A stretch of 64,000 nucleotides of DNA from Nitrospirota bacterium (lineage in GTDB: Bacteria > Nitrospirota > UBA9217): contig CAVTRN010000001.1 of NCBI GenBank assembly GCA_963737155.1, positions 1,088,001 through 1,152,000 on the forward strand, in the 5' to 3' direction. Shown piece after piece: positions 7,900 through 9,229 of the stretch (its first letter is position 1; the number at the start of each line of letters is the position of its first letter). The notes under the pieces are model-generated. The model saw only the letters and a list, made by a program, of their open reading frames with translations. It searched no databases and was not told where the DNA came from. A program made the position numbers and the translations under genes.

Positions 7900-8022
7900 G
7901 TGAAAAAGATCATGAGCAAAGAAGCAACAGCCAAGGAGGCAGCCTACTGGAACCTCATGAAACAGCTGGCAAAACAGAACCCCGGTACGGTATGCCACAA
8001 ATGAAAGGGCTGAAAGAGCTAG
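7900..8022 (+). CDS. Putative selenocysteine-containing RiPP precursor peptide, 40 aa (MKKIMSKEATAKEAAYWNLMKQLAKQNPGTVCHKUKGUKS)
   Basis: AGGAGGTGA SD at 7884-7892 and GTG at 7900. In-frame TGA at 8002 and 8011 continue a Cys-x-x register, then TAG at 8020. A SECIS-like hairpin follows, and a rSAM/SPASM gene is adjacent. Confidence 0.75.
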
Positions 8023-8040
8023 TGTTGCTGGTCAGCAACA
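8023..8040 (+). promoter_or_regulatory. Bacterial SECIS-like hairpin
   Basis: TGTTGCT-GGTC-AGCAACA is a perfect 7-bp stem with a GGUC loop, close to the E. coli fdhF SECIS apex GGTTGCAGGTCTGCACC. Confidence 0.7.
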
Positions 8041-8044
8041 GCAG

Positions 8045-8123
8045 GGAAACCGGCGGACAGGACTGGTTCGCTACGATGTTGTAGTATGTTCCTGACCGGC
8101 TATGTCCGTCTGTTTCCGTTTTT
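8045..8123 (+). terminator. Long stem-loop plus U-tract between precursor and maturase (terminator, attenuator or stabiliser)
   Basis: GGAAAC-C-GGCGGACA pairs with TGTCCGTC-T-GTTTCC. Inner helices are CTGGTT/GACCGG and CTAC/GTAG, followed by GTTTTT. Confidence 0.55.
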
Positions 8124-8185
8124 CCCGATTCAATGCATTGATCATCCCTAATGGCGAAGTCATTCTCAACAATCATCGGGCCGCG

Positions 8186-9229
8186 ATGTCAACCAACAAA
8201 CCCTTCGATTTTTTTATTCAGTGGCATCTGACCGAGAACTGCAACCTCTCATGCCGCCATTGCTATCAGGGAGAGCAGGTCACCGATGAAATGCCGCTGG
8301 CCGATATTAAAAGAGCCATAGCTGAAGCTGCGGACATGGTCACTGCCTGGTCGGAAGACTACGGCGTCACTTTTTCCCGGAGCATAAACATCACCGGCGG
8401 GGAGCCCCTTTTAAGGCGGGACCTCTTTACCATACTCGACGACGTCCGGAGACAAGGCTTTGGCTGCTACTTGCTCACGAATGGGACGCTCGTCACGAAT
8501 GACGTTGCCAAAGCGCTCGTCGAGCTGAAGATCAAGGGTGTCCAGGTCAGCATAGAAGGACCTGAAGAAATCCATGATTCCATTCGGGGCAAGGGAAGCT
8601 TCACCGCAGCAGTATCGGGGGTCGAGCATCTCGTTGATGCTGGGATCTCGGTTACGATAAACGTTACGCTGTCCAGTCTGAACGCATCTTTCCTGAAACA
8701 TATCATCGCCCTCGCTTCCCATATTGGCGCAAGACGGATTGGTTTTTCGCGCCTCGTTCCCGCAGGCAAGGGACAATTCCTGCTCTCCCGCATGCTGGGG
8801 CCGTACGAAGTAAAGGAATTATACGAGTCAGTGCTGCCGCTCGAGATCAGGGCTTTGGAGGTTGTGACCGGCGACCCCCTTGCAGCGCAGATCAAGCATC
8901 TGTCGAACGGCGATGATGGAAATACGGCAATAAGTGGCTGTTCCGCGGGCGTATCGGGGCTGACAATACTTCCCAACGGCAATGTGATGCCCTGCAGAAG
9001 GCTGCCACTGTCCCTTGGAAATGTCCGAAGAGATTCACTTCGCGAGATCTGGGCCACGTCGCCCGTACTGGAGGCTCTCAGGGATCGGCGCAGATACAAA
9101 GGTAAATGCGGAACTTGCCACCGCTGGGCACGTTGCCGCGGATGCCGGGCTATCGCTTATGCTTACTCGCGCTCCCAGGGCAACGACGATTTTCTCGCCG
9201 ACGATCCGCAATGCTTTATTCCAGCGTGA
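8186..9229 (+). CDS. Radical SAM/SPASM domain protein (putative peptide maturase)
   Basis: CNLSCRHC (CxxxCxxC) and TGGEP. SPASM Cys set GCSAG...MPC...CGTC..WARCRGC...DPQC. Start is uncertain (ORF open from 8102). Confidence 0.92.
   Translation: MSTNKPFDFFIQWHLTENCNLSCRHCYQGEQVTDEMPLADIKRAIAEAADMVTAWSEDYGVTFSRSINITGGEPLLRRDLFTILDDVRRQGFGCYLLTNGTLVTNDVAKALVELKIKGVQVSIEGPEEIHDSIRGKGSFTAAVSGVEHLVDAGISVTINVTLSSLNASFLKHIIALASHIGARRIGFSRLVPAGKGQFLLSRMLGPYEVKELYESVLPLEIRALEVVTGDPLAAQIKHLSNGDDGNTAISGCSAGVSGLTILPNGNVMPCRRLPLSLGNVRRDSLREIWATSPVLEALRDRRRYKGKCGTCHRWARCRGCRAIAYAYSRSQGNDDFLADDPQCFIPA

Follow-up and report, generated by a model that had tools for sequence, protein, structure and literature searches.

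A candidate selenopeptide and its adjoining radical SAM/SPASM enzyme in uncultured Nitrospirota

A short gene with two in-frame UGA codons and, behind it on the same strand, a gene for a radical S-adenosylmethionine (SAM) enzyme of the SPASM type are found in the genome of a Nitrospirota bacterium (UBA9217). The stretch of DNA that was analysed, referred to below as the window, is 64,000 nucleotides (nt) long and corresponds to positions 1,088,001–1,152,000 of CAVTRN010000001.1 (assembly GCA_963737155.1). We consider it probable that the two genes constitute a module in which a dedicated radical SAM/SPASM enzyme modifies a selenocysteine (Sec)-containing peptide, the likely outcome being an intracellular redox-active or metal-binding selenopeptide. 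The module likely represents a new family of the kind already known from SbtA/SbtM, with a peptide, a recognition mode and partners of its own, and falls outside current family models. If true, it would be a second family, unrelated to SbtA/SbtM, of natural Sec-containing radical SAM substrates, and one that combines two Sec residues with a short enzyme.

The probable selenocysteine peptide and its linkage to the enzyme gene

When UGA is read as Sec (U), positions 7900–8019 of the window encode the peptide MKKIMSKEATAKEAAYWNLMKQLAKQNPGTVCHKUKGUKS, which ends in C32-H-K-U35-K-G-U38-K-S40 and is followed by a TAG stop codon at 8020 (Table 1). An earlier note on this DNA had described here a short open reading frame (ORF) with a strong Shine-Dalgarno sequence, and both are present as claimed, the latter reading GGAAAGGAGGTG. 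A GGAGGTG block is found 5' of the start codon in orthologous loci as well, and the GTG start of the window gene lines up with the ATG of its orthologs. In an alignment of 117 orthologs residues E13, W17, C32, K34, U35 and U38 are invariant, the mean column identity of the peptide is 62% over the alignment and the core is nearly fixed. A helical N-terminal portion, which is conserved, leads into a basic tail of the form C-x-K-U-x-(G/S)-U-K-S. Since the whole peptide is conserved, beyond the limits of the core, a conserved cellular role is indicated rather than that of a variable antibiotic. An all-Cys form was encountered in only one of the 98 true peptides among the matches listed. It belongs to a locus (L168, record QIFJ01000169.1) in which two peptide genes, with the tails CRKUNGUKS and CRKCNGCKS, lie ∼2 kb apart on the same strand; a single tblastn match to the enzyme, located 3' of the Sec copy, would put the enzyme between the two peptide genes.

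Several observations indicate that the peptide is very probably translated with two Sec residues. The genome encodes both selB (374.3 bits against a cut-off of 242.25) and tRNA-Sec (65 bits against a gathering score of 47), and the hairpin which the earlier note had likened to a selenocysteine insertion sequence (SECIS) is indeed there, with GGUC as its loop, beginning 10 nt 3' of the second UGA. The hairpin was compared over 122 distinct sequences drawn from relatives and named genome records; standard pairing is seen in 98.9% of the cells of its six pairs, and four of the six covary, with changes on both sides in 81 cells (for example, GCUGGUCAGC to GCCGGUCGGC, or GUUGC to GCUGC, GCCGC or GUCGC). 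The covariation score was reached by none of 500 shuffles, and pairing falls to 15–59% when the partner is shifted by 1–3 columns. Codons were counted in 123 sequences chosen for a TGA at both sites, the source scans having also allowed TGC/TGT: codon 39 is Lys in 122 of them, the Ser codon 40 is AGC/AGT in 111 and TCN in 8, and codon 41 is TAA in 55, TGA in 53 and TAG in 14, a pattern of protein-level constraint that extends past the second UGA. A permissive Rfam scan of positions 7700–8300 produced five chance-level matches and placed no curated RNA family on the hairpins; the SECIS is therefore named from its anatomy. Precedent for two close UGA codons ahead of one SECIS is provided by selenoproteins of the UxxU type with two Sec residues, families of which are found in the table of a 2026 review as far as its accessible part extends (PMC13188914).

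Between the two genes the earlier note had also pointed out a long stem-loop, which we locate at 8045–8117, directly followed by GUUUUU; the folded 143-nt stretch has a z-score of −2.32 relative to shuffles. Relatives carry at the same place a hairpin with the arms GGCAGATATGGC and GCCATATCTGCC. A strict GGCAGATATGG-like motif occurs in 43 of 121 copies, compared with 1% of shuffles; in 42 of the 43 cases it forms the 5' arm of the long hairpin, and a T-rich tail follows 34. The arm sequence (GGCAGATATGGC ... GCCATATCTGCC), then a T run, is kept in many lineages (e.g. L032, L033, L056, L106 and L181), where it may act as a regulatory switch or as a site for binding. The long hairpin was not listed by a simple terminator scan, because its loop is too long for the 3–8 nt that the scan allows. 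From its sequence and fold we read it as a putative leaky terminator.

Table 1. Features of the peptide–enzyme locus in the window
Feature	Position	Strand	Basis
Shine-Dalgarno region of the peptide gene, GGAAAGGAGGTG	7880..7891	+	read from sequence
Selenopeptide gene, 40 amino acids, GTG start, TAG stop	7900..8022	+	translation with TGA as U
First in-frame UGA (Sec35)	8002..8004	+	translation, codon counts
Second in-frame UGA (Sec38)	8011..8013	+	translation, codon counts
SECIS-type hairpin, stem of 6–7 pairs, loop GGUC	8023..8040	+	fold, covariation
Long stem-loop and U run, terminator-/attenuator-like, between peptide and enzyme genes	8045..8123	+	fold
Radical SAM/SPASM enzyme gene, 346 amino acids	8189..9229	+	Pfam; start from ortholog alignments

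In order to see how closely the two genes are tied, their occurrence was followed in a sample of 401 genomes of the phylum. Enzyme orthologs are present in 73 of these at 51–87% identity, and the next matches lie at 41–42% (two genomes) and then in the mid-30s; by sequence identity the enzyme forms a sharply bounded orthologous group. The earlier proposal of a pair hinged on enzyme homologs keeping a peptide gene upstream, and this is what they do: in 59 of 70 distinct ortholog loci the peptide gene lies 14–379 nt upstream on the same strand, while the remainder comprises one locus with the peptide at 1.4 kb upstream, two with too little upstream sequence and eight with none within 1.5 kb. The peptide pattern matched 71 of the 401 genomes, one of them (G393) by chance, leaving 70 true occurrences, compared with none for the reversed pattern; two further peptides outside the pattern, in G281 and G371, were recognised by eye. 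In all, 71 genomes contain the complete pair, two have the enzyme without the peptide (one of them, G143, with an internal TAA in the enzyme gene) and one, G190, has the peptide without the enzyme, 65 nt from a contig end. In seven genomes (G153, G237, G287, G365, G377, G391 and G397) both genes are kept on different contigs, and this retention of unlinked genes points to a functional tie beyond synteny.

Some loci record changes in the peptide gene itself. Decayed remnants lie 5' of intact enzyme genes in L054, where a TAA/TAG stop has taken the place of the first Sec codon and the Cys has moved, and in L067, where the front part is deleted; the genomes of both loci (G287 and G397) have an intact peptide gene elsewhere. 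Genome G343 harbours three peptide copies.

A scan with the core pattern over one genome per species retrieved at least 120 stretches, 97 of which are true peptides and 23 chance matches in unrelated taxa, the loci being taken as fixed 8-kb blocks. Among the matches listed, the enzyme is encoded in the same block in 77 of the 97 true peptide loci. All 97 listed records are metagenome-assembled genomes. Most are labelled as Nitrospirae, Nitrospirota, Thermodesulfovibrionales or Thermodesulfovibrionia, including Candidatus Sulfobium and Dissulfurispiraceae, some as delta proteobacterium, Syntrophorhabdaceae/Syntrophorhabdales, Syntrophobacterales, Thermodesulfobacteriota or Proteobacteria, and one each as Deferribacteres and Chloroflexota. 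Judged from these sequences, many uncultured anaerobes have conserved the pair.

The enzyme and its position among known systems

The earlier note had reported a same-strand radical SAM/SPASM gene without an evident N-terminal RRE or PqqD region, and the domain analysis agrees on both counts. Pfam places PF04055 at residues 14–160 (78 bits) and PF13186 at residues 251–311 (47.4 bits), and no other domain, RRE and PqqD regions included, N-terminal to the radical SAM domain. The CX3CX2C motif (C18/C22/C25) is accompanied by seven SPASM cysteines (C251, C269, C307, C310, C316, C319 and C342), and all ten residues are invariant in 110 orthologs. At E-values up to 1 the enzyme matched 89 NCBIfam models, and in every one of the best 25 of these 89 it stays below the cut-off; scores for ten models are compiled in Table 2. 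The peptide, with U read as C, matched neither an NCBIfam nor a Pfam family at E-values up to 1. The earlier note had proposed to score the pair against TIGR04082, against TIGR04081, which we take to be the precursor model of the SbtM system, and against NCBIfam, and had left room for a hidden Markov model that already covers the family; with the SbtM score given in Table 2 and a peptide that matches nothing, no NCBIfam or Pfam model does.

Table 2. Scores of the window enzyme against family models
Model	Enzyme score (bits)	Cut-off (bits)
AhbD (TIGR04545)	186.2	500
NirJ2	177.1	500
ACGX (TIGR04340)	162.1	400
GeoRSP (TIGR04303)	158.6	400
MftC	146.9	265
SbtM (TIGR04082)	136.6	350
StsB	110.5	625
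PapB	87.7	340
PqqE	85.4	381
AlbA	68.2	850

Public collections contain the peptide nine times among 5.8 billion clustered proteins, unnamed or as 'hypothetical', and the matches always cover 85% of the query, i.e. they are cut at the first UGA. The enzyme has more than 2,200 relatives at E-values up to 1e-60 in public protein collections, and the names given to the best 120 of them are 'radical SAM protein', the same with a 4Fe4S-binding SPASM domain, 'MoaA/NifB/PqqE/SkfB family' and 'AdoMet-dependent heme synthase'. The pair is in this way invisible to current annotation, the peptide being truncated and the enzyme being named either generically or, wrongly, as a heme synthase; a family model of the peptide together with its SECIS would correct many genome annotations. 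A full-text search of the literature, with supplementary tables of selenoproteome surveys outside its scope, returned no paper on the peptide/enzyme family, and those tables might list the peptide as a hypothetical family. A CxxUxxU entry is absent from the accessible part of the review table (PMC13188914).

The literature search identified SbtA/SbtM of Geobacter as the sole characterised natural Sec-containing radical SAM substrate. According to the available part of its description (PMC11002830), this system shares with the window pair a short precursor with an in-frame UGA and a SECIS directly behind, as well as an adjoining radical SAM/SPASM enzyme. SbtM acts on the Sec precursor, and a four-hydrogen loss leads to a thio/seleno-oxazole product (PMC11002830, same part). 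The earlier note had nonetheless set the window pair apart from SbtA/SbtM, and the comparison bears this out. The window enzyme stays below the cut-off of the SbtM model and aligns to positions 199–516 of 516 only, and thus lacks the first ∼200 model positions. Unlike SbtA, the window peptide has two Sec residues and one Cys in a Lys-rich C-terminal tail, and it matches no NCBIfam model. The two systems also differ in the taxa in which they occur and in the YceI and reductase partners of the window-type family.

In terms of sequence, the nearest solved structures are those of SkfB (E-value of 2.4e-13), PqqE (4.6e-11) and CteB (5.5e-9). The window enzyme shares the CX3CX2C motif and the full seven-Cys SPASM motif with PapB, Tte1186/CteB and SkfB/AlbA, and the window system has in common with thioether maturases a Cys-rich small peptide encoded upstream, in the window a putative substrate. 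In the accessible part of a study of PapB and Tte1186 (PMC10177961), Sec-substituted substrates are bound through Se–Fe contacts and selenoethers are formed. However, Sec is natural in the window peptide and engineered in the substrates of those two enzymes, and the window enzyme is far below the cut-offs for PapB, StsB and AlbA and has no RRE-type N-terminal domain.

In mycofactocin (MftA/MftC) and pyrroloquinoline quinone (PQQ; PqqA/PqqE) biosynthesis, a short conserved precursor is modified at its extreme C-terminus with the help of a SPASM enzyme, and the product is intracellular, with no exporter. The window system resembles both in its short conserved precursor, C-terminal core, SPASM enzyme and absence of an exporter, but differs from them in having no separate PqqD/MftB chaperone gene and in the involvement of selenium.

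AhbD and NirJ provide the best-scoring NCBIfam models of the window enzyme, and some of its orthologs are publicly annotated as 'AdoMet-dependent heme synthase'. Identity with AhbD was rejected, as the score is far below the cut-off and the genome has an AhbD at a different locus, with 526.5 bits. The AhbD match to the window enzyme is broken into two stretches, and AhbD-like loci in relatives, one of which (L041) reaches 433 bits with the AhbD model, are 31–35% identical to it. These scores do not place the enzyme in the heme/cofactor clade, membership in which the earlier note had named as speaking against its proposal. GeoRSP and ACGX are similar in length to the window enzyme and align with it end to end (for GeoRSP, enzyme residues 9–343 to model positions 6–325 of 325). 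Assignment to GeoRSP was likewise rejected on its score (Table 2), and a true GeoRSP enzyme in relatives (451 bits) is only 34% identical. With 40% identity, and below all NCBIfam cut-offs, the closest outgroup of the enzyme is encoded in L093 and L094 behind a membrane protein with a Gly/Ser/Cys-rich C-terminal tail and repeated CSGC, which may be another SPASM substrate.

Predicted binding, modification and alternative explanations

A complex of the window enzyme with the 34-residue part of the peptide obtained by translation with table 11, three 4Fe–4S clusters and SAM was modelled from single sequences. All three runs gave an ipSAE value of 0.89, with 0.02 as the highest value among three controls; at least 90% of contacts recur between runs, and the pLDDT of the partner is at least 76. 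Of the calibration set, which included no ligands, 51 of 78 solved complexes and 2 of 108 mismatched pairs attained the mark. In the model, peptide residues E13 and W17 contact W54 and Y58 of the enzyme, which belong to a stretch missing from every one of the 14 aligned outgroup SPASM proteins, and also R285, a family-specific residue, and W288 and R298, which are general SPASM residues. Peptide residues 26–32 contact G228–P230, positions 247–252 (including C251) and C319. The model supports binding of the peptide by the enzyme. It further suggests that the peptide helix is recognised by the SPASM domain together with a family-specific insert, without an RRE, and that Cys32 is placed beside the auxiliary clusters.

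We infer that the peptide is the substrate of the enzyme and propose the following sequence of events. The peptide gene would be read through its two UGA codons as Sec with the aid of the hairpin just 3' of the stop codon, and the terminator-like hairpin between the genes would yield more peptide than enzyme. The enzyme would bind the peptide helix directly, by means of the SPASM domain and the family-specific insert rather than an RRE domain, and the Cys/Sec tail (Cys32/Sec35/Sec38) would be threaded to its iron–sulfur clusters, in parallel to the selenolate–iron binding of PapB/Tte1186. A SAM-derived radical would then modify the tail. As the first choice of chemistry we favour S–C or Se–C cross-links of the ranthipeptide/sactipeptide type, for which the invariant K34 and the near-invariant K39 are candidate residues; by analogy with SbtM, the second choice would be a thio/seleno-oxazole-type ring arising from a four-hydrogen oxidation. 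As neither a protease nor an exporter nor a signal peptide is present, the mature product would most likely remain intracellular. The absence of a protease or exporter next to the window genes had been remarked on in the earlier note, and neither a protease nor a transporter recurs among the neighbours when 39 loci, or the 97 listed ones, are clustered. The mature peptide would probably be a small redox-active or metal-binding selenopeptide.

Apart from lineage-specific housekeeping genes, the same clusterings revealed two recurrent neighbours. A YceI-like gene (PF04264) is present in 14 of the 39 loci and, among the matches listed, in 21 of the 97, and a class I flavoprotein disulfide reductase (FDR), the best model of which is dihydrolipoyl dehydrogenase NF004947 (512.6 bits against a cut-off of 592), in 4 of the 39 and, again among the matches listed, in 8 of the 97. 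The gene orders are peptide–radical SAM–YceI–FDR, peptide–YceI–radical SAM, peptide–YceI and peptide–YceI–FDR. Reductase orthologs of at least 56% identity, a cut set after the gap to ∼51% had been seen, were counted in 18 of the 401 genomes, none of which falls outside the 73 that have the enzyme. In some lineages the mature peptide would accordingly be a molecule kept reduced by the linked reductase and handled by the YceI-like barrel protein. Whole-peptide conservation, the housekeeping-gene surroundings and the linked disulfide reductase in some lineages together favour a conserved intracellular role, and the tie to the reductase may lead to a hypothesis of selenium-based redox chemistry in sulfur-cycling anaerobes.

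Some relatives of the reductase (e.g. L227, G016:C2, and L228, G015:C30) have an in-frame TGA at the second Cys of CxxxxC, the active site reading GGTCLNTGU in place of GGTCVNYGC; from the position of the TGA, they look like selenoprotein forms. The genome of the window has only a 50%-identical Cys-form reductase, encoded outside the window at G000:C1:1164204–1165562. One of the peptide copies of G343 (L229, G343:C3) has a divergent front and is followed by YceI and disulfide reductase genes, with no radical SAM gene.

A bolder and, in our judgement, unlikely extension is that the module makes a radical-SAM-matured diselenol cofactor, an intracellular selenium redox carrier that would alternate between selenol and diselenide/selenenylsulfide, be recharged by the FDR and be handled by the YceI-like barrel. 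Were this true, uncultured anaerobic Nitrospirota and some deltaproteobacterial lineages would host a selenium counterpart of the glutathione, mycothiol and coenzyme A thiol systems with their reductases.

A number of points weigh against the reading of the pair as a peptide-modifying module. The complex was modelled without alignments, without either Sec residue and with ligands that are outside the calibration, and supports binding only. The first UGA is 9 nt farther from the hairpin than the second, which makes one hairpin for two spacings, and a search of sequencing runs returned no RNA run with the stretch, only soil-metagenome DNA runs with small word shares. The 100% complete genome G020 has an intact enzyme gene, and no peptide was found in it by pattern or by six-frame protein search. 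Conversely, in about 10 of the 97 listed loci the peptide is followed by several kb without the enzyme, the genomes concerned not having been searched for an unlinked copy; examples of a peptide without a downstream enzyme are L104, L107, L111, L131, L160, L161, L169 and L188, and some such cases are only block ends, since the 8-kb blocks are fixed. The sampled genomes are related, so that the co-occurrence counts are descriptive and not independent. YceI and reductase genes are absent from most loci, including that of the window, and a redox role consequently rests on a minority of lineages. Finally, the best models of the enzyme are those of heme/cofactor enzymes (AhbD, NirJ2), leaving room for a non-peptide substrate.

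When the gene of a SPASM enzyme is preceded by a short Cys-rich gene, the product of the latter is usually what the enzyme modifies, and for this reason, among others, we think it improbable that the peptide is already complete as a small selenoprotein, for example with a tail for metal binding or redox reactions, and that the enzyme acts on another item of the pathway, such as a cofactor carried by the peptide. The modelled helix lies on family-specific residues with Cys32 beside SPASM cysteines (0.89 against 0.02), co-occurrence is near complete (71 genomes with both genes against three with a single one) and the genome has its true AhbD at another locus. The case for a finished selenoprotein draws on the conservation of all 40 residues, typical of a working protein, on cofactor enzymes being the best models, on peptide copies that lie beside YceI and reductase genes without the enzyme (L136, G343) and on the UxxU metal-binding selenoproteins known from the accessible part of the 2026 review (PMC13188914).

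Very unlikely, too, is a peptide that serves the enzyme as a stoichiometric partner rather than as a substrate, its selenols ligating an auxiliary cluster or delivering selenium to the product of the enzyme. The modelled tail does lie near C251 and C319, and selenolates bind auxiliary-cluster iron in related enzymes (PMC10177961, available part), but the enzyme already has all seven SPASM cysteines, the terminator-like hairpin suggests unequal amounts of the two products and there are up to three peptide copies per enzyme (G343). Scarcely credible is a functionless peptide whose ORF would be a regulatory leader, sensing selenium through its two UGA codons and controlling the terminator hairpin: the layout is attenuator-like, with a short two-UGA ORF, a SECIS, a terminator-like hairpin with a conserved arm and the enzyme gene in succession, but the amino acid sequence is conserved over its full length with synonymous codon changes, the peptide gene is far from the enzyme gene in at least seven genomes of the phylum sample, and the peptide is predicted to bind the enzyme.

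Genomic surroundings of the pair

On the 5' side the pair is flanked by pgl, which ends at 7780, and on the 3' side by pal, which starts at 10504, with ybgF-like genes also on that side. The earlier note, which had placed all elements between pgl and pal, was right as to the flanks but had passed over an NAD-dependent epimerase/dehydratase-like gene (9309–10250, + strand) that sits between the enzyme gene and pal. This gene is split across at least three reading frames in the window and is one intact ORF of ∼330 amino acids at the same place in the close relatives L018, L019 and L020; the broken copy is either a pseudogene or the result of assembly indel errors. Farther along the window, positions 12066–12317 (+ strand) encode the Cys form (CKAC ... 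CEKC) of a zinc-ribbon protein of the FmdB family, and UxxU forms of that family are listed in the accessible part of the 2026 selenoproteome review (PMC13188914).

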